The notes under the pieces: generated by a model
The model's database searches: none
What the model saw: the letters and a program-made list of their open reading frames with translations, nothing else
Told to the model about the DNA's origin: nothing
Part shown: piece by piece, positions 27,488 to 59,900 of the stretch
How positions within the stretch are numbered: position 1 is the first letter of the stretch
Layout of the letters: every line of letters starts with the position of its first letter
Translations under genes and position numbers: made by a program
Origin: Escherichia coli
GTDB taxonomy: Bacteria > Pseudomonadota > Gammaproteobacteria > Enterobacterales > Enterobacteriaceae
Length of the DNA stretch: 64,000 nt
Assembly: GCF_024298765.1 (NCBI RefSeq)
Contig: NZ_CP101210.1
Strand: one strand, 5' to 3'

Positions 27488-27502
27488 GTATCTGATATAT
27501 GT

Positions 27503-27548
27503 CGCCGCATACCGTGTCGGATGCGGCGTACACGCCTTATCTGACCGA
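27503..27548. repeat. REP element
   Basis: gtcggatgcggcgtacacgccttatctgac. Confidence 0.6.
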
Positions 27549-27686
27549 CAAACGAATTATCCACAATCCGCTGATGGACATTTTTCCAGCAATTACACCT
27601 CTGTCGATAATTAACTATTGACGAAAAGCTGAAAACCACTAGAATGCGCCTCCGTGGTAGCAATTCTTTTTAAGAATTGACGGTAT

Positions 27687-27773
27687 GCGAAGGTGGCGGA
27701 ATTGGTAGACGCGCTAGCTTCAGGTGTTAGTGTCCTTACGGACGTGGGGGTTCAAGTCCCCCCCCTCGCACCA
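27687..27773 (+). tRNA. leuQ: tRNA-Leu (CAG), first copy
   Basis: 87-nt GCGAAGGTGGCGGAATTGGTAGACGCG...CCCCCCCCTCGCACCA with encoded CCA. Confidence 0.95.
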
Positions 27774-27801
27774 AAAACCACGTTGATATTGCTCGCACTG
27801 G

Positions 27802-27888
27802 GCGAAGGTGGCGGAATTGGTAGACGCGCTAGCTTCAGGTGTTAGTGTTCTTACGGACGTGGGGGTTCAAGTCCCCCCCCTCGCACCA
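27802..27888 (+). tRNA. leuP: tRNA-Leu (CAG), second copy
   Basis: same 87-nt sequence with one substitution (gtgttc instead of gtgtcc). Confidence 0.95.
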
Positions 27889-27922
27889 AACGAGGCAATA
27901 TCAAAAAAAGTAAGATGACTGT

Positions 27923-28009
27923 GCGAAGGTGGCGGAATTGGTAGACGCGCTAGCTTCAGGTGTTAGTGTCCTTACGGACGTGGGGGTTCAAGTCCCCCCC
28001 CTCGCACCA
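27923..28009 (+). tRNA. leuV: tRNA-Leu (CAG), third copy
   Basis: identical to first copy. Confidence 0.95.
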
Positions 28010-28047
28010 ATTATCTTTACTTCCTTTCTTGTTTCTTCCCTGTTTTA

Positions 28048-28424: not shown

Positions 28425-29213
28425 ATGGCCTATCGTTCCGCACCGCTCTATGAAGATGTTATCTGGCGAACGCATCTCCAGCCGCAGGATGCTGGGCTTG
28501 CACAAGCCGTACGGGCGACGATCGCCGAACATCGTGAACATTTGCTGGAGTTTATCCGTCTGGATGAACCCGCACCGCTCCGTGCCATGACGCTGGCGCA
28601 ATGGTCATCACCGAATACGCTAAGTTCTCAACTGGCGGTCTATTCCGATCATATCTACCGCAACCAACCCTTGATGATCCGCGAGAACAAACCGCTGATC
28701 TCACTATGGGCACAATGGTATATCGGCCTGATGGTGCCACCATTAATGTTGGCGCTGCTGACGCAGGAAAAAGCATTAGATGTGTCGCCGGAACATTTCC
28801 ACGTTGAGTTTCACGAAACCGGACGCGCCGCCTGTTTCTGGGTCGATGTGTGTGAAGATAAAAACGCAACACTACATTCGCCGCAGCAGCGAATGGAAAC
28901 GTTAATCAGCCAGGCGCTTGTTCCGGTAGTGCAGGCATTAGAAGCGACGGGAGAGATCAACGGCAAACTTATCTGGAGCAATACCGGTTATTTGATCAAC
29001 TGGTATCTGACTGAGATGAAACAGCTGCTTGGCGAGGCGACGGTTGAATCGCTGCGCCATGCCCTCTTTTTTGAGAAAATGCTCACGAACGGTGAAGATA
29101 ATCCACTCTGGCGTACCGTGGTACTGCGCGACGGCCTGCTGGTGCGCCGCACTTGCTGCCAGCGTTATCGCTTACCGGATGTGCAGCAATGTGGCGATTG
29201 TACGCTGAAATGA
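28425..29213 (+). CDS. fhuF: ferric-siderophore reductase FhuF
   Basis: 262 aa; C-terminal C-C-x10-C-x2-C 2Fe-2S motif. Confidence 0.9.
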   Translation: MAYRSAPLYEDVIWRTHLQPQDAGLAQAVRATIAEHREHLLEFIRLDEPAPLRAMTLAQWSSPNTLSSQLAVYSDHIYRNQPLMIRENKPLISLWAQWYIGLMVPPLMLALLTQEKALDVSPEHFHVEFHETGRAACFWVDVCEDKNATLHSPQQRMETLISQALVPVVQALEATGEINGKLIWSNTGYLINWYLTEMKQLLGEATVESLRHALFFEKMLTNGEDNPLWRTVVLRDGLLVRRTCCQRYRLPDVQQCGDCTLK

Positions 29214-29249
29214 AGCACTGCCGGGGAAGTAAACCCGGCATCATGTGGA

Positions 29250-29927
29250 TTAATAGGGATGCAACACATTACTTGCTTCGCAATGCCGCATACATAACAG
29301 AATATCTGCGGCCTCCAACAACCCTGCATCAGAACTGACGCCCAGTTTCGACATTACATTAAATTTATGCGCGCGGATCGTTTTGATATTGCGTTTAAGC
29401 TGCTCGGCAATTTGTGTCATTGAGTAGCCACGCGACATAAAGCGCAATATTTCTCTCTCCGTCGGGCTTAGCGTCCGGCTTTGGTTAATGTACCACTGAT
29501 TGTTCAGTCGGTCGGTCGCCTGACGCACACCATTTAATGACAAAAAGAGTTCCTGATGAAAAATCTCCAGCGTCGACGCTTTACTTAATACACCGTCCAG
29601 CGGTGATGGCGACAATGAACCAATCAGCCGAGCTTCAATATCATCATCCGCAATAACTAAACGTCGGGTACGCGGAAACTTAATCGCCAGTTCAGTCAGG
29701 CAAGATAATCCCTCTCTGCGTTTACTTCTCATGGCAGAAAAAGAAAAAATGACCGCCGCAAACGAGATCCGCGACATGGCATCCTGAAATGACTCCTGAC
29801 TGGTATAGATATGGAGCTTATAAGGGTTACCTGCAAACTTTCTGAATAAACTCTCAATACCGATACTGCTCATGACGCATTTTTCTATGAGTGCGACATT
29901 TCTCTTCTTAATTCGGCTGTGTTCCAT
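29250..29927 (-). CDS. bglJ: LuxR-family transcriptional activator BglJ
   Basis: 225 aa, C-terminal LuxR HTH; overlaps yjjQ 3' end. Confidence 0.85.
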
Positions 29928-30610
29928 TCTGCGGCATCTCCATAAACAGAAGGCAAGTTAAGTTCTCTTGCACCCTGCGCGCTATTTATCCATGCATACA
30001 TTTCAGCGTTACTGTGAATTGCCAGTCGACGCATCGCACTGTTTTTTTGGGCGCTGATAGTTTTATTACTTTTCTTAAGCAATGAAGCTATCTGGTTGAT
30101 GCCCCATCCTTTACCTAATAGCCGCAGTACCTTGCGCTCTGAAAGAGTGAGAATGACTGAGCGATAGCTAAAATCATGAGTTTCAGTCATTGCCGGAGAG
30201 GTCAGCATGGCGCTGATACGCTCTGCGTGCGTATTGCCGGAACGTACGGTCTTGACCAGATTCTCAATGGGTTCAACATCAGACAATAACGTCGCCGTAG
30301 GGCACATGAGCAATTCTACTGCCTGGGAATACCAGGAGCGTGACACCATGAAAACCCAGTGAATTTCCCGATATTGTGAGATTAAAGAGTAATAATGCTC
30401 ACAAACGGAACGTGGATCTTCACTTTCACCGGCCAAATCAGCAATGACTAATCCGGAACGACGTAATTGTAATAAGGTAAGGTCCTCCGCAGAGGCGCTG
30501 GATATTATTTCATATTCAGGGAAGTGAGTCCTCATGACCTCTTTTAACCCTGCTTGCATAACAGGTATTTTACTGATAACAATTCCATTTTTGCAGCATC
30601 CTGGCAACAT
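29885..30610 (-). CDS. yjjQ: LuxR-family regulator YjjQ
   Basis: 241 aa; long AT-rich region upstream. Confidence 0.85.
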
Positions 30611-31229
30611 ATTTCCTCCACATCCACTGTCTAAAAATCATGATGGTTTATTCAAGGTATTCATTCCTTAAATATTCTCAGCAAATTAATAGATTAAGTG
30701 AATAAATTATCCTTAGCATTCACTTTCATATCAGCATACTCCTGCTGCACAACAACTCCACTGCATGTGTCAGAAGGTTAGCATCAAATGATAACCTGGT
30801 GAAATAGCCTGGAGACATTTAAAATATCTACATTAAGTTGTTAGAAATACTTAATGAAAAACAGAGATCTCATTCATTTAATTTATAATTAAATGATATC
30901 TCTTCCCGCAGAATGCGGGAATCACACAATCAATATTTATTCAATAAAATCTGATGGTTTTAACTTGTTAACATTAAAAAACGCGCCCAGCTATCTATTA
31001 TCCTGACTCGTAAAGGCCAAATAACAAATTCATTATAGTGATAATATTCATGCGATAGTTTGTTTACGGCGAGAGATAATTCGCTTTTTATCACCGAGCA
31101 TCTCCCGATAACCAGGATTAATCAGCGCAATTTTGATCTTAACCTACCGCAAAACAACCGTGCTTCATGATACAAATGGATTCTCATTAACTGAACAATA
31201 CGCAGCACGTCTATGACAAAGGGCGAGTT

Positions 31230-32464
<1,235 letters not shown>

Positions 32465-32571
32465 AATTGCCTCACTTAAAGCACGCGGATGAGAGACAGC
32501 CTCCTCTCCTCCGTGTGTTACTATAAAAGTTATCTCCCTTCTCGTTCATCGTTCCATATTTGAGAAACAGT

Positions 32572-33111
32572 ATGTCTTCCAGAGTTTTGACCCCGGACGT
32601 CGTTGGTATTGACGCCCTGGTACACGATCACCAAACCGTTCTGGCAAAAGCTGAAGGCGGTGTGGTTGCCGTATTTGCTAACAATGCTCCGGCGTTTTAT
32701 GCCATCACTCCTGCACGCCTGGCTGAACTGCTGGCGCTGGAAGAAAAGCTGGCGCGTCCGGGAAGTGACGTGGCCCTGGACGATCAACTCTATCAGGAAC
32801 CGCAAACCGCTCCCGTTGCCGTACCCATGGGGAAATTTGCCATGTATCCGGACTGGCAACCCGATGCCGACTTTATCCGCCTGGCGGCGCTATGGGGCGT
32901 GGCACTAAGAGAGCCGGTGACCGCCGAAGAACTGGCGTCATTCATTGCCTACTGGCAGGCGGAAGGCAAAGTCTTTCACCATGTGCAGTGGCAACAAAAA
33001 CTGGCGCGCAGCCTGCAAATCGGTCGTGCCAGCAACGGCGGACTGCCGAAACGAGATGTGAATACGGTCAGTGAACCTGACAGCCAAATTCCGCCAGGAT
33101 TCAGAGGGTAA
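32572..33111 (+). CDS. dnaT: primosomal protein DnaT
   Basis: 179 aa from [17 protein letters not shown]. Confidence 0.95.
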
Positions 33112-53848: not shown

Positions 53849-55468
53849 ATGGCCAAAGCACCAACTAAAAAAGCCAAAGCAAAGAAAGGCTTTGAAGAAA
53901 CATTATGGGATACCGCAAACCAGCTTCGCGGTAGCGTTGAGTCCTCCGAATACAAGCACGTGGTGTTGAGCCTCGTGTTCCTGAAATTCATCAGCGATAA
54001 GTTTGAAGCACGCCGCAAAAAAATGATTGCCGATGGGCAAGCAGACTTCCTTGAGATGGAAGTGTTCTACCAGCAGGACAACATTTTCTACCTGCCGGAA
54101 GAGGCGCGCTGGTCATTTATCAAACAAAATGCCAAACAGGACGATATTGCGGTCCGTATTGACACCGCCCTCTCGACCATTGAGAAACGTAACCCAACGC
54201 TGAAAGGCGCGCTGCCAGACAACTACTTCAGCCGTCAGAATCTGGAAACCAAAAAACTGGCGTCACTGATTGATACCATCGACAACATCGAAACGCTGGC
54301 ACACGAAACTGACGTTGAAACGTTATCGAAAGAAGACCTGGTCGGACGCGTTTACGAATACTTCCTCGGTAAGTTTGCCGCAACTGAAGGCAAAGGCGGT
54401 GGTGAGTTCTACACGCCTAAATGTGTGGTTACGCTGTTAACTGAAATGCTCGAACCCTTCCAGGGCAAAATTTATGATCCGTGCTGCGGCTCGGCGGGGA
54501 TGTTTGTGCAGTCGGTGAAGTTTGTCGAGAGCCATCAGGGTAAAAGTCGTGATATCGCGCTGTATGGTCAGGAACTGACAGCCACGACGTATAAACTGGC
54601 AAAAATGAACCTCGCCATTCGCGGTCTTTCAGCTAACCTCGGCGAACGCCCGGCAAACACTTTCTTTAGCGACCAGCACCCGGACCTGAAAGCCGACTAC
54701 ATTCTGGCGAACCCGCCGTTCAACCTGAAAGACTGGCGTAACGAAGCTGAATTAACCAAAGACCCACGTTTTGCCGGTTATCGTATGCCGCCAACCGGTA
54801 ACGCCAACTACGGCTGGATTTTGCATATGCTCTCCAAGCTGTCGGCTAACGGTACAGCAGGTTTTGTGCTGGCAAACGGTTCGATGAGTTCTAACACCAG
54901 CGGTGAAGGCGAGATCCGTGCGCAGATGATCGAAAATGATCTGATCGACTGCATGATCGCCCTACCTGGACAGTTGTTCTACACCACGCAGATCCCGGTG
55001 TGTTTATGGTTTATGACCAAATCGAAGGCTGCCGACCCAGCCAAAGGTTATCGTGATCGTCAGGGCGAGACGCTGTTTATTGATGCGCGTAACCTCGGCA
55101 CCATGATTAGCCGCACAACTAAAGAGTTAACGACGGAAGATATTGCCACAATCGCCGATACCTACCATGCCTGGCGCAGCACGCCGGAAGAACTGGCTGC
55201 ACGGATTGCGCGTGGTGACAGCAAGTTGGAAAAATATGAAGACCAGGCAGGTTTCTGCAAAGTTGCAACCCTGCAAGATATTAAAGATAACGACTACGTA
55301 CTGACACCGGGCCGCTATGTGGGTGCAGCCGAGCAGGAAGAAGACGGCGTGGCATTTGAGACGAAAATGCGCGAATTGTCGAAGACGTTGTTTGAGCAGA
55401 TGAAGCAGGCGGAAGAACTGGATCGTGCGATTCGCCAGAATCTGGAGGCGCTGGGTTATGGGCTTTGA
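53849..55468 (+). CDS. hsdM: type I restriction-modification methyltransferase subunit HsdM
   Basis: 539 aa; FYTP, YDPCCGSAGMF SAM-binding motif and ANPPF catalytic motif. Confidence 0.9.
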   Translation: MAKAPTKKAKAKKGFEETLWDTANQLRGSVESSEYKHVVLSLVFLKFISDKFEARRKKMIADGQADFLEMEVFYQQDNIFYLPEEARWSFIKQNAKQDDIAVRIDTALSTIEKRNPTLKGALPDNYFSRQNLETKKLASLIDTIDNIETLAHETDVETLSKEDLVGRVYEYFLGKFAATEGKGGGEFYTPKCVVTLLTEMLEPFQGKIYDPCCGSAGMFVQSVKFVESHQGKSRDIALYGQELTATTYKLAKMNLAIRGLSANLGERPANTFFSDQHPDLKADYILANPPFNLKDWRNEAELTKDPRFAGYRMPPTGNANYGWILHMLSKLSANGTAGFVLANGSMSSNTSGEGEIRAQMIENDLIDCMIALPGQLFYTTQIPVCLWFMTKSKAADPAKGYRDRQGETLFIDARNLGTMISRTTKELTTEDIATIADTYHAWRSTPEELAARIARGDSKLEKYEDQAGFCKVATLQDIKDNDYVLTPGRYVGAAEQEEDGVAFETKMRELSKTLFEQMKQAEELDRAIRQNLEALGYGL

Positions 55469-56855
55469 TTTTCAGTTGTTAGAAAATGCAGGGATCCAGC
55501 TAATTGATGGTGACAGAGGCAAAAATTATCCTAAACATAATGATTTTATGGAGAATGGCTATTGTCTTTTCTTATCCGCTAAAAATGTCACTAAATCTGG
55601 TTTTCAATTTCAAGAAACATTATTTATCAATGAAACTAAAGATCGTGAACTAAGAGCAGGAAAGCTTAAGTACGGTGACATTGTTCTTACTACCCGTGGC
55701 ACAGTAGGTAATGTTGCGTACTATGACAATAATAATCCATATAAACATATTAGAATCAACTCAGGAATGATTATCATTCGAGCTGATAATAAATTATGGA
55801 ACCCTAAATTTCTATATTTCATATTAAAATCAGAACTATTAAAAGAACAGATCATTAATCTTATCTCTGGCTCTGCAGTGCCTCAACTACCCGCGAGAGA
55901 TATTAGGAAATTTATATTACCAGTTATTAATAGAAGCCTTCAAAATAAAATTACTAATATTATCTCAGATATTAATGATAAGGTTAATTTAAATATAGAA
56001 ATTAACCAAACACTCGAAAAAATGTCCCAAACCCTGTTCAAATCATGGTTTGTGGATTTTGATCCGGTGATTGATAACGCGCTGGATGCAGGAAACCCCA
56101 TCCCGGAAGCCCTGCAATCTCGCGCCGAATTGCGTCAAAAAGTACGTAATTGTGCAGATTTCAAACCGCTTCCGGCGGAAATTCGCTCGCTTTTCCCAAG
56201 TGAATTTGAAGAAACGGAGTTGGGTTGGGTGCCAAAGGGCTGGTCTTTCACTGCATTAAAAAACTTTGGTAAAATCATATGCGGTAAAACACCAACTAAA
56301 AGTAACAAAAATTATTATGGCGAAGATTTTCTTTTTATAAAAATACCAGATATGCATGGTAAAGTTTTTGTAACAAACTCACATGATAAATTAAGTAAAC
56401 TCGGTAGCGAGTCACAATCAAATAAAATAATTCCTCATGGTAGCATCTGTGTAAGTTGTATAGCGACTGTTGGTTTAGTCTCTATTAATGCGCAAGATTG
56501 CCATACAAACCAGCAGATCAATAGTATTGTACCAAACAGTCCACATTATCGAAATTACTTATATTTTTCTATGTTAGAGAAATATAAAATATTTCATGAT
56601 TTGGCTAGTGGAGGTAGTGCAACCCTCAATATGAATACAAGTGTGTTCTCTAACATAGCCACATTAATGCCAAATAATCTCGTGCTTAAACAATTTCACA
56701 AAATAACAGAACCTTGGTTTGAAGCCATATTACTAAATGAATATAAGTTGACCTCACTTGCATCTCTCCGAGATACCCTGCTCCCGAAACTCATCTCCGG
56801 TGAGCTATCCCTGGAAGATCTTCCGGATCTCAACACCGATACAGAAGCTGCATAA
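55458..56855 (+). CDS. hsdS: type I restriction-modification specificity subunit HsdS
   Basis: ATG overlaps hsdM stop, GGAGG 9 nt upstream; 465 aa; AT-rich target-recognition-like segments. Confidence 0.8.
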   Translation: MGFDFQLLENAGIQLIDGDRGKNYPKHNDFMENGYCLFLSAKNVTKSGFQFQETLFINETKDRELRAGKLKYGDIVLTTRGTVGNVAYYDNNNPYKHIRINSGMIIIRADNKLWNPKFLYFILKSELLKEQIINLISGSAVPQLPARDIRKFILPVINRSLQNKITNIISDINDKVNLNIEINQTLEKMSQTLFKSWFVDFDPVIDNALDAGNPIPEALQSRAELRQKVRNCADFKPLPAEIRSLFPSEFEETELGWVPKGWSFTALKNFGKIICGKTPTKSNKNYYGEDFLFIKIPDMHGKVFVTNSHDKLSKLGSESQSNKIIPHGSICVSCIATVGLVSINAQDCHTNQQINSIVPNSPHYRNYLYFSMLEKYKIFHDLASGGSATLNMNTSVFSNIATLMPNNLVLKQFHKITEPWFEAILLNEYKLTSLASLRDTLLPKLISGELSLEDLPDLNTDTEAA

Positions 56856-56949
56856 CGCATTTTGCCCCTGTAAAATCAGGGGCTTTCTGGTAAGGTTTTC
56901 TACTGATACGGGAATGCTTACCCGAAATTAGCCAGGGTTGGAGCGCAAT

Positions 56950-59900
56950 ATGAGTCTCTCTTTCAGTGAAGCAAAATTAGAACAAGCGATCATTGAACTG
57001 TTACAGGATCAGGGATATCAACACCTGATCGGCGATAATGTCCCACGTTCAAGTCTCGATCAGGTCATCATCGAAGACGATCTCCGTCATTATTTAGCGG
57101 CACGTTACCAGCCTGATGGCATTACTGAAGAAGAGATTCAGCGACTGATCAAACAGTTCACCACGCTTCCGGCCTCCGATCTTTATGAAAGCAACAAAAT
57201 ATTTTGTCGCTGGCTGGCAAATGGTTTTCTGTTCAAACGCGACGATCGGCAACAAAAAGATCTCTATATTGAATTGCTCGACACCCGGCATCTACCTGCC
57301 GCGCTGCGCCAGATATTTGACGCCGAAGATGTCCCGTTGCAACAGGCGGCGGAACTCCCGCCCTCCTATATTAATCCGCCGCTTAACCGGATTAAGATTG
57401 TTAACCAGCTTCAAATCTCCGGCAAAGATAATCAGACTCGTATTCCTGACGGCATTCTCTATATCAACGGTCTGCCACTGGTCGTCTTTGAATTTAAAAG
57501 TGCGGTGCGCGAGCAGGAAGCCAGTATTGGCGATGCCTGGAAGCAGCTCTGTAAACGCTACCGCCGGGATATTCCACAACTGTTTATCTACAACGCGCTC
57601 TGCATTATTAGCGATGGCGTAAATAACCGGATGGGCAACCTGTTTGCGCCCTATGAATACTTTTACTCATGGCGCAAAGTCACCGGTAATGAAAACCGTG
57701 AACAGGACGGAATTCCATCATTGCACTCAATGATTCAGGGACTGTTTCATCCGGTACGTCTGTTGGATGTGATTAAAAACTTTATCTGCTTCCCGGATAA
57801 AGCCAAGCACGAAGTAAAAATTTGCTGCCGATATCCGCAGTACTATGCCGCCCGCAAACTCTATTACAGCATCAAGCAAGCGCGTAAACCTTTCGGTAGC
57901 GGTAAAGGCGGTACCTACTTTGGCGCAACGGGCTGCGGTAAAAGCTACACCATGCAATTTTTAACCCGCTTGTTAATGAAAAGCGTGGAGTTTGCCAGCC
58001 CGACCATTGTTTTGATCACCGACCGTACCGATCTGGACGATCAGCTTTCTGCGCAAATGTGCAACGCCAAAAATTACATTGGCGATGACACCATCGTTCC
58101 CGTTACCAGCCGTGAAGATTTGCGTAATCAACTGGCGGGACGCAATAGTGGCGGTGTATTCCTGACAACGATCCATAAATTCACCGAAGACACCGAACTC
58201 CTTTCTGAACGCAGCAATATCATTTGCATCTCGGACGAAGCACATCGCAGCCAGGTTAACCTCGACCAGAAAGTCATCGTCGATAAAGAAAGCGGAAAAG
58301 TACGCAAAACGTATGGCTTTGCAAAATACCTGCACGATTCACTGCCAAATGCCACCTATGTTGGCTTTACCGGCACACCGATTGACGCGACGCTCGATGT
58401 CTTCGGTGAGGTGATCGACAGTTACACCATGACCGAATCCGTTCAGGATGAAATCACTGTACGCATCGTGTACGAAGGCCGTGCGGCTAAAGTGATCCTG
58501 GACTCCAGCAAACTGGAAGAAGTCGAAAAGTATTACGAAGAGTGCGCAAACGCAGGCACCAATGAGTGGCAAATCGACGAAAGTAAAAAAGCCACCGCAA
58601 CCATGAATGCGGTACTGGGTGATGAAGATCGGTTAAAAGCCCTCGCGGAAGATTTTGCCAAACATTATGAAAAACGCGTAGCCGAAGGTTCCACCGTAAA
58701 AGGCAAAGCCATGTTTGTTTGTGCCAGCCGTGAAATTGCCTGGGATTTCTACCGCCAGCTTAAAGCTATTCGCCCTGCCTGGTTTGAAGTGAAGCAAGCA
58801 CCTGATGGCGTCGTCCTGACGGAACAGGAGCAGAAAGAGTTACCGCCTTCTGAAATGGTGAAGATGGTCATGACGCGCGGTAAAGATGACGACGAGACGC
58901 TTTATGATTTACTGGGCACAAAAGAATATCGCAAAGAGCTGGATAAGCAGTTCAAAAACGCTAAATCGAATTTCAAAATTGCCATTGTTGTTGATATGTG
59001 GCTGACCGGTTTTGATGTTCCTGAACTGGACACCATCTATATTGATAAGCCCTTACAAAAACATAACCTTATCCAGACTATTTCTCGCGTTAACCGTAAA
59101 CTGGAAGGCAAAAGCAAAGGGTTAGTAGTGGACTACATCGGCATTAAGAGTCAGATGAACCAGGCACTGGCAATGTATTCCCGCATTGATGCCACCAACT
59201 TTGAAGATATTCAGCAATCGGTAATAGAAGTTAAAAACCATCTCGATTTGTTGGGGCAAGTCTTTTACGAATTTGACAGTCGGGATTATTTTAGTGGTGA
59301 GCCACAAGCGCAATTATCCTGCCTCAACCGCGCGGCGGAATTTGTTCTGCGTACCCAGAAAGTTGAACGTCGGTTTATGGGACTGGTTAAACGCATGAAA
59401 GCCGCCTACGACGTCTGCTGCGGCAGCGAAGCATTATCACAGACAGAACGTGACTATATTCACTATTATCTTGCTGTTCGTTCAATTGTTTTCAAACTGA
59501 CGAAAGGTGACGCACCGGATGTCACCCAGATGAATGCTCGCGTTCGTGAAATGATTGCAGAAGCGTTAAAAGCTGATGGCGTAGAAGAAATTTATTTTCT
59601 TGGCGACAAAAAAGCGGAATCCATCGATATTTTTGACGAAGATTATCTGGCGCGAATTAACAAGATCAAACTTCCGGCAACGAAGATCCAGTTATTACAA
59701 AAATTACTGGAAAAAGCGATCAGCGACTTCAGGAAAGTGAACCAGTTGCAAGGGATTAACTTCACCCGCCGCTTCCAGGCGATTATAGATCGTTATAATG
59801 AGCGGCGAGAAGATGATGTACTCAACGGTGAAGAATTCGATACATTCAGTCAGGAAATGACCGATATTATCTATGATATTAAAACCGAAATGGGCACATG

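Follow-up and report, generated by a model that had tools for sequence, protein, structure and literature searches.

The yjjQ-bglJ operon of Escherichia coli is repressed by H-NS and activated by LeuO, as described by Stratmann, Madhusudan & Schnetz 2008 (J Bacteriol 190:926; cited in PMC5025477, PMC3950696 and PMC2646131). The title of that study, as cited, names the divergent gene yjjP as well. According to the citing papers, which come from the same laboratory, an hns stpA mutant would express yjjQ-bglJ, whereas H-NS repression otherwise “dominates” and the locus stays OFF in the laboratory (PMC5025477, PMC3950696, PMC2646131). Here, we analysed the corresponding DNA of a non-K-12 E. coli, i.e., the spacer between yjjQ and yjjP at positions 30611–31229 of a 64,000-nucleotide stretch of contig NZ_CP101210.1 (hereafter “the window”, meaning that whole stretch). 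Very probably, the segment contains the promoters and regulatory sites of two divergent units, yjjQ-bglJ to the left and yjjP-yjjB to the right, and is silenced by H-NS. The feature is real and represents an already characterised H-NS-silenced, LeuO-antagonised control region with a documented MarA site, and it holds no hidden gene.

The K-12 region between yjjP and yjjQ-bglJ serves as the prototype. Both regions are orthologous, with the same flanking genes in the same orientation, a length of 618 bp in K-12 MG1655 compared to 619 bp here, and 95.3% identity, while the flanking genes are 98–99% identical. The K-12 region lacks two traits found in this spacer, namely a perfect hairpin at 30903–30921 and a stop codon in an old yjjP extension (see below). 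Similar silencer regions, likewise AT-rich, are found at the bgl and leuO promoters, where H-NS maintains the OFF state under laboratory conditions and LeuO counteracts it. Both promoters are part of one regulatory circuit with the spacer, in which leuO and yjjQ-bglJ are mutually connected and yjjQ-bglJ feeds into bgl; in concert with RcsB, BglJ activates bgl, leuO, and further loci. Activation by insertion sequence (IS) elements is known for bgl and has been seen for yjjP. Unlike at the bgl and leuO promoters, two divergent units share one silencer in the spacer. A further group of related regions comprises csgD<>csgB, nanC<>fimB, and the DNA upstream of gadE, which fall into the same class of Shimada 2014, i.e., type-A spacers with RpoD and H-NS sites from genomic SELEX (systematic evolution of ligands by exponential enrichment). 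The yjjQ<>yjjP spacer has been used as a host-informative polymorphic marker, and the members of this group are likewise polymorphic intergenic markers for host tracking, albeit far more regulators have been documented for them. Through the spacer, two LuxR-type regulators (YjjQ, annotated in the K-12 RefSeq record as a transcriptional repressor, and BglJ) and the YjjPB succinate exporter are controlled. It is a textbook-style case, and one that is already known, of a single AT-rich silencer shutting off two divergent units.

Location, composition and H-NS control of the spacer

As judged from the open reading frame (ORF) list and the sequence, the spacer lies exactly between yjjQ-bglJ on the minus strand and yjjP-yjjB on the plus strand. 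The start codon of yjjQ ends at 30610 on the left, and the ATG of yjjP begins at 31230 on the right. The original prediction, made from the sequence alone, had described a divergent region of about 620 bp between yjjQ-bglJ and yjjP; its coordinates are exact and its gene names were borne out by megablast and Pfam searches, the latter assigning GerE/LuxR domains to YjjQ and BglJ and a ThrE domain to YjjP. By megablast of 29200–32500, 5424 of 5426 complete E. coli genomes contain the locus. The spacer itself is present in 5423 of the 5426. Several strains are 100% identical at the locus, and RefSeq places bglJ, yjjQ, yjjP, and yjjB at the same boundaries. The gene arrangement of K-12 MG1655 is the same, so that the spacer occupies the position of the prototype between the divergent yjjQ-bglJ and yjjP-yjjB units.

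The composition of the spacer differs strongly from that of the flanking genes, in agreement with what had been predicted. Its GC content is 0.344, compared to 0.513 for the window, 0.450 for yjjQ, 0.453 for bglJ, and 0.524 for yjjP, and equally low values occur in only 0.6% of 619-bp windows across the 64 kb. The spacer shares this marked AT-richness relative to the genome with the K-12 prototype. Intergenic DNA was compared by an ORF-gap analysis of the window itself, since the annotation of the matching strain 13P477T applies only to ~24.5–40.9 kb. The window has 16 gaps of ≥150 bp that are free of ORFs (GC 0.27 to 0.62); the spacer is the second longest of them, and it has the lowest GC content of all gaps >200 bp. 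The GC content is graded within the spacer, with 0.347 at 30611–30800, 0.292 at 30801–31060, and 0.42 at 31061–31229, and the AT-rich tract continues into yjjQ, covering ~90 bp of its 5′ end. Relative to the window, the density is 2-fold for TpA steps and 1.5-fold for A/T tracts. The sole other zone of the window that is as AT-rich lies at 55321–56950 (minimum GC 0.317) and holds a gene for a 476-amino-acid type I restriction-modification specificity protein (HsdS, Methylase_S) at 55425–56855.

Binding data from the literature complement the genetic evidence for repression. In K-12 W3110, yjjP<>yjjQ was classified as a type-A spacer that binds RpoD holoenzyme and includes an H-NS genomic-SELEX site (Shimada 2014, PMC3946193). 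The SELEX result speaks against a spacer free of H-NS, keeping in mind that it was obtained in vitro and not by chromatin immunoprecipitation (ChIP) in vivo. Together with the published repression of yjjQ-bglJ, this in vitro site supports the claim of the original prediction that the segment is a known H-NS-silenced promoter region. When E. coli evolves in the mouse gut, the spacer is repeatedly hit by IS insertions, which are beneficial. IS2 is among the inserted elements, and in one clone with a spacer insertion the expression of yjjP was increased 2-fold. A comparable event was noticed in the natural isolate 203740 (L083, 4030–5045), in which an IS1 element is accompanied by a deletion that takes out the spacer almost entirely, together with the 5′ part of yjjQ. 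In this isolate, ~60 bp separate the end of the IS1 transposase gene from yjjP downstream. The event parallels the adaptive insertions from the mouse gut.

Combining these data, the following mechanism may be proposed. The core promoters would be located near the spacer edges, with the yjjQ promoter predicted at 30706–30734 and the extended −10 element of yjjP at 31168–31176. H-NS would bind the 29%-GC centre (~30801–31060) and spread or bridge from there, silencing both promoters under laboratory conditions. LeuO, a LysR-type antagonist of H-NS, would occupy AT-rich sites in the spacer and thereby relieve the repression of yjjQ-bglJ, while MarA would bind the marbox at 30781–30795. IS insertions or deletions that break the AT-rich tract would raise yjjP expression. 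In line with this layout, H-NS is said to bind the AT-rich centre distal to the divergent promoters; reportedly, LeuO sites are located both centrally and distal to the yjjQ promoters, with one site overlapping the yjjP promoter.

Several observations weigh against this reading, or against its transfer to the present strain. A total of 29 differences to K-12 (substitutions and indels) were counted over the 619 positions of the spacer, including a new hairpin in the AT-rich core, and quantitative regulation could differ between strains. The H-NS SELEX site stems from K-12 W3110, i.e., from another strain. LeuO activation of the native operon is too weak for a BglJ-dependent effect in the laboratory. 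Moreover, the promoter and binding-site positions given for this spacer are predictions. Promoter-like sites occur at chance level (4 compared to 3.0 ± 1.9 in shuffled sequences), and the 10-bp high-affinity H-NS consensus TCGATAAATT, allowing for up to two mismatches, is not enriched, as the three sites with two mismatches were reached in 98 of 500 composition-matched shuffles. The consensus count was dropped as evidence in either direction.

The last two results are what would be expected of a generic long AT-rich spacer that combines two ordinary promoters with the usual GC bias of non-coding DNA and involves no silencing by nucleoid proteins. Intergenic DNA in the window is indeed generally lower in GC than the genes. 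Still, such an explanation is highly improbable: it leaves aside the extreme length and composition of the spacer among the gaps of the window, the published H-NS repression and SELEX binding at exactly this spacer, and the fact that AT-richness has been kept in 53 species despite a central sequence that is not conserved (see below).

Conservation of the spacer and the question of a hidden gene

The blocks 30700–30844 and 31101–31189 are invariant compared to K-12. An alignment of six Escherichia sequences, comprising the window, K-12, and four other Escherichia species, resolves a more detailed pattern. On the yjjQ side, conservation is observed at 30611–30650 (including the ribosome-binding region of yjjQ), 30699–30735, the marbox at 30778–30799, and 30815–30855. 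On the yjjP side, the segments 31039–31051 and 31118–31144 as well as the last 70 bp before yjjP are conserved. Between species, 30801–31060 is the least conserved part; the centre (~30855–31035) is nearly unalignable and yet AT-rich. Conserved promoter-proximal edges around a centre that is conserved in composition and free in sequence fit the layout expected of a central platform for the nucleation and spreading of H-NS, flanked by promoters and binding sites of specific factors.

The arrangement extends beyond the genus. We retrieved the loci of 80 Enterobacteriaceae species via YjjP, and yjjQ-bglJ is divergent from yjjP in 75 of them. A direct spacer of 347–709 bp is present in 53 of these 75 loci, with a mean GC content of 0.365 compared to 0.517 for the loci. 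In the other 22 (Klebsiella, Raoultella, Kluyvera, and some Citrobacter including C. amalonaticus and C. sedlakii), ~2.6 kb separate yjjQ and yjjP. In K. pneumoniae (L057, 2641–4723), the intervening stretch that splits the shared spacer holds ORFs of 302 and 394 amino acids. Judged by their translations, the former is a putative pobR, an AraC-type regulator, and the latter a putative pobA, a 4-hydroxybenzoate 3-monooxygenase.

A different explanation would be that the spacer hides an unannotated gene, be it a small RNA, a small protein, or a leader peptide. In favour of a gene, 619 bp is a considerable length for a spacer, which also comprises a hairpin and a palindrome. Moreover, five of six Escherichia sequences share a 30-amino-acid ORF (30726–30818, minus strand, directly upstream of the promoter predicted for yjjQ) with unchanged ATG, frame, and length. 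Closer inspection makes a gene very unlikely. All ORFs in the spacer are mechanical and span 27–45 amino acids. For the 30-amino-acid ORF, substitutions are distributed evenly over the three codon positions (7/9/9 and 7/7/9 compared to two other Escherichia species), the split of synonymous and non-synonymous changes equals that of the off-frames, and a Shine-Dalgarno sequence is missing. Its conservation is explained in part by the marbox and the promoter block, which lie inside. Lacking a coding signature, the ORF was rejected as a small protein and is probably not coding. The statement that the spacer contains no ORFs was thus right in substance, none of the mechanical ORFs carrying a signal of coding selection. 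As to small RNAs, Rfam gave no match at E ≤ 1 on either strand of 29000–33000, and a terminator scan returned one weak terminator-like site, as expected by chance. The GC-rich hairpin occurs neither in K-12 nor in the outgroup. Finally, no annotated features were found inside the spacer in K-12 or in the other RefSeq genomes examined.

The lower GC content of yjjQ and bglJ (0.45) relative to their neighbours and the IS elements landing in the spacer (IS1 in strain 203740, IS2 in mouse-gut evolution) might suggest that yjjQ-bglJ is an island of recent acquisition, with the AT-rich DNA as its scar or boundary, or that this DNA stems from a decayed mobile element. Such an origin is scarcely credible: the yjjQ-bglJ<>yjjP arrangement occupies the same position in 75 of the 80 species sampled and is therefore ancient, the region is present in virtually all E. 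coli genomes (5423 of 5426), inverted or direct repeats at the termini were not found at any length, nor were target-site duplications at the edges, and no close relatives with yjjP adjoining fhuF in the absence of yjjQ-bglJ were seen.

Regulatory sites and palindromes within the spacer

For an H-NS-silenced divergent control region, the coordinates of the individual features are collected in Table 1. The original prediction proved incomplete rather than wrong, as the MarA site, the palindromes, and the family-wide arrangement had been left out; its overall call is confirmed, now with a feature map in window coordinates and with the absence of a hidden gene documented.

Table 1 Features of the yjjQ<>yjjP spacer and the adjoining genes (window coordinates; strand given where assigned)
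Feature	Position	Strand	Remarks
Whole yjjQ<>yjjP divergent intergenic regulatory region	30611–31229		619 bp, GC 0.344
Shine-Dalgarno sequence of yjjQ, GGAGGA	30614–30619	−	Read from the sequence
Candidate LeuO core-like site GTATTCATTCCTTAAATAT, GTATTCA-N5-TAAATAT	30657–30675		Prediction; 12 of 14 half-site positions match
Predicted sigma-70 promoter of yjjQ, CTGATA-17-GATAAT	30706–30734	−	Top promoter-like score in scans; predicted start ~30699
MarA marbox GCATCAAATGATAAC	30781–30795	+	Exact match to the marbox of ETEC H10407
AT-richest core, proposed H-NS nucleation/filament zone	30801–31060		GC 0.292; from composition, position inferred
Conserved AT-rich block, candidate promoter element or protein site	30815–30855		Near-invariant in six Escherichia sequences
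Perfect 10+3+10 AT palindrome, TCATTTAATT-TAT-AATTAAATGA	30874–30896		23 bp; unique in the window
Lineage-specific GC hairpin, TTCCCGC-AGAAT-GCGGGAA	30903–30921		19 bp
Conserved block TGATAATATTCAT, extended −10-like TGaTAATAT	31039–31051		With ATATTCA LeuO-type half-site
Conserved yjjP-proximal element TTAATCAGCGCAATTTTGATCTTAACC	31118–31144	+	TTGATC at 31133–31138
Predicted extended −10 of yjjP promoter, TG-a-TACAAA	31168–31176	+	Predicted start ~31183
In-frame TAA closing the former 21-codon N-terminal extension of yjjP (ATG 31167)	31188–31190	+	TAT in K-12
yjjQ, LuxR/GerE-type regulator, 241 amino acids	29885–30610	−	First gene of the yjjQ-bglJ operon
bglJ, LuxR/GerE-type regulator	29250–29927	−	43-bp overlap with the 3′ end of yjjQ
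yjjP, ThrE family, putative succinate exporter subunit, 256 amino acids	31230–32000	+	Followed by yjjB

The GGAG core of the yjjQ Shine-Dalgarno sequence is invariant in 20 aligned Enterobacteriaceae sequences and the fifth position, a G, nearly so; of 71 spacers from outside Escherichia, 41 contain words from this region. Alignment across genera upstream of yjjQ is confined to the Shine-Dalgarno sequence and an element at ~30815–30835, the core of the AT-rich block. The best-match promoters listed by Shimada 2014 (PMC3946193) are CTGATA-17-GATAAT for yjjQ and ATGAAA-17-TTTAAT for yjjP, which map here to 30734–30706 on the minus strand and 30854–30882 on the plus strand, respectively. The yjjQ promoter block is conserved in all six Escherichia sequences. 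As the counts from the promoter and terminator scans are at chance level, our promoter assignments rest on conservation.

A ChIP-seq peak of MarA was reported in yjjP<>yjjQ of enterotoxigenic E. coli (ETEC) H10407, with a marbox, gcatcaaatgataac, scored “+++”; MarA also bound this marbox in vitro in an electrophoretic mobility shift assay (Sharma 2017, PMC5684230). The ETEC 15-mer gcatcaaatgataac is found unchanged at 30781–30795, and it carries at most one change in each of the six Escherichia sequences. The spacer thereby resembles targets of the mar regulon such as xseA and mlaFEDCB, its 15-bp marbox being an exact match to a site that MarA occupies in ETEC both in vivo and in vitro. Unlike for these targets, no MarA effect on the expression of yjjQ or yjjP was found in the literature examined. 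A promoter-like sequence, TGGTGA-17-TAAAAT (30797–30825, plus strand; possible start ~30832), directly adjoins the marbox, and this succession of a marbox and a −35-like hexamer on the plus strand is reminiscent of mlaP2, where the marbox is adjacent to the −35 element (PMC5684230).

The core of the LeuO sites at cas and leuO was described as a 19-bp palindrome (7-5-7) that is nearly identical at both loci (PMC6698644). Scanning the K-12 spacers accordingly, we obtained the cores ATATTCATACTGTGAATAT (cas) and ATATTGATTTGGTGAATAT (leuO), from which the motif ATATTCA-N5-TGAATAT was derived by ourselves. The sequence at 30657–30675 is the only match with at most two mismatches in the 64-kb window (P ~0.016, for a self-derived motif). 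Compared to cas and leuO, the spacer thus features the palindromic core only once and as a 12/14 match, and as a LeuO site it should be considered a lead rather than a demonstrated site.

On the yjjP side, the block at 31039–31051 is invariant in the six Escherichia sequences and present in 27 of 71 other spacers. The element at 31118–31144 is conserved between Enterobacteriaceae genera, and all 21 sequences of an alignment spanning several genera share its hexamer TTGATC (31133–31138), which precedes the start predicted for yjjP by ~45 bp. An assignment of TTGATC as FNR/CRP-type site was rejected as the second half-site is not conserved, and one as −35 hexamer was rejected as the spacing of 32 nucleotides to the −10-like element is too long. 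The pattern (T/G)G-n-TA-n-AA at 31168–31176 was observed in ~17 of the 21 aligned sequences across genera. Klebsiella, Raoultella, and Kluyvera carry GG in this pattern, and only one column, the A at 31172, is identical throughout. The former N-terminal extension of yjjP (31167–31229) is open in K-12, and its old ATG at 31167 overlaps the predicted extended −10 element. Here, the TAA at 31188–31190 interrupts the extension, which supports the current start at 31230. The spacer has reportedly been counted as 555 bp, which fits the older yjjP start 63 bp upstream.

The original prediction had also stated that no repeats were seen. This holds for tandem and dispersed repeats, as Tandem Repeats Finder and a direct-repeat search revealed no arrays in the spacer and only short two-copy chance matches. 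Conversely, two short palindromes had been overlooked (30874–30896 and 30903–30921). The arms of the first are of a length found in 0.45% of composition-matched shuffles (P ~0.0045). Six E. coli strains were compared, and this palindrome is perfect in five of them; the Escherichia sp. outgroup shows one change in an arm. It was rejected as a LeuO core, the half-sites ATTTAAT not matching ATATTCA. In strain DFK.1 (L085) the arms are kept and the three-nucleotide loop is flipped from TAT to ATA (hairpin-loop flip).

The second palindrome, the GC hairpin, has a folding energy of −8.7 kcal/mol as DNA (z = −4.5) compared to −1.1 kcal/mol in K-12. The GCGGGAA allele is found in the window, ST540, and DFK.1, while K-12, CREC-629, L725, and the outgroup Escherichia carry G(C)-AAAA. 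By this distribution the hairpin is a derived allele, in which three adjacent changes at 30917–30919 complete the inverted repeat; the pattern looks like that expected from a quasi-palindrome (template-switch) mutation. A role of the hairpin as terminator or small RNA element was discarded, as there is no T-run on either strand and the structure is absent from K-12 and the outgroup.

It is conceivable, albeit rather unlikely, that the TTGATC block, the marbox next to the promoter-like plus-strand site, and the palindrome represent further regulatory inputs beyond H-NS and LeuO and that the hairpin allele alters H-NS silencing between lineages. If true, an activator of the succinate exporter could bind TTGATC within its conserved 27-bp block, and an effect of the hairpin on silencing would fit the locus as a repeated target of gut adaptation and a host-associated marker.

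Surroundings of the locus

Collinearity and identity with strain 13P477T are confined to ~24.5–40.9 kb of the window. Beyond these limits (1–24500 and 40900–64000) the genomes differ, 13P477T having a prophage adjoining yjjG, and the flanks of the window therefore hold DNA that varies between strains. In the matching RefSeq record, three tandem tRNA-Leu genes are annotated at 27687–28009 between rsmC and yjjZ, which account for the 560-bp ORF-free gap at 27488–28047.

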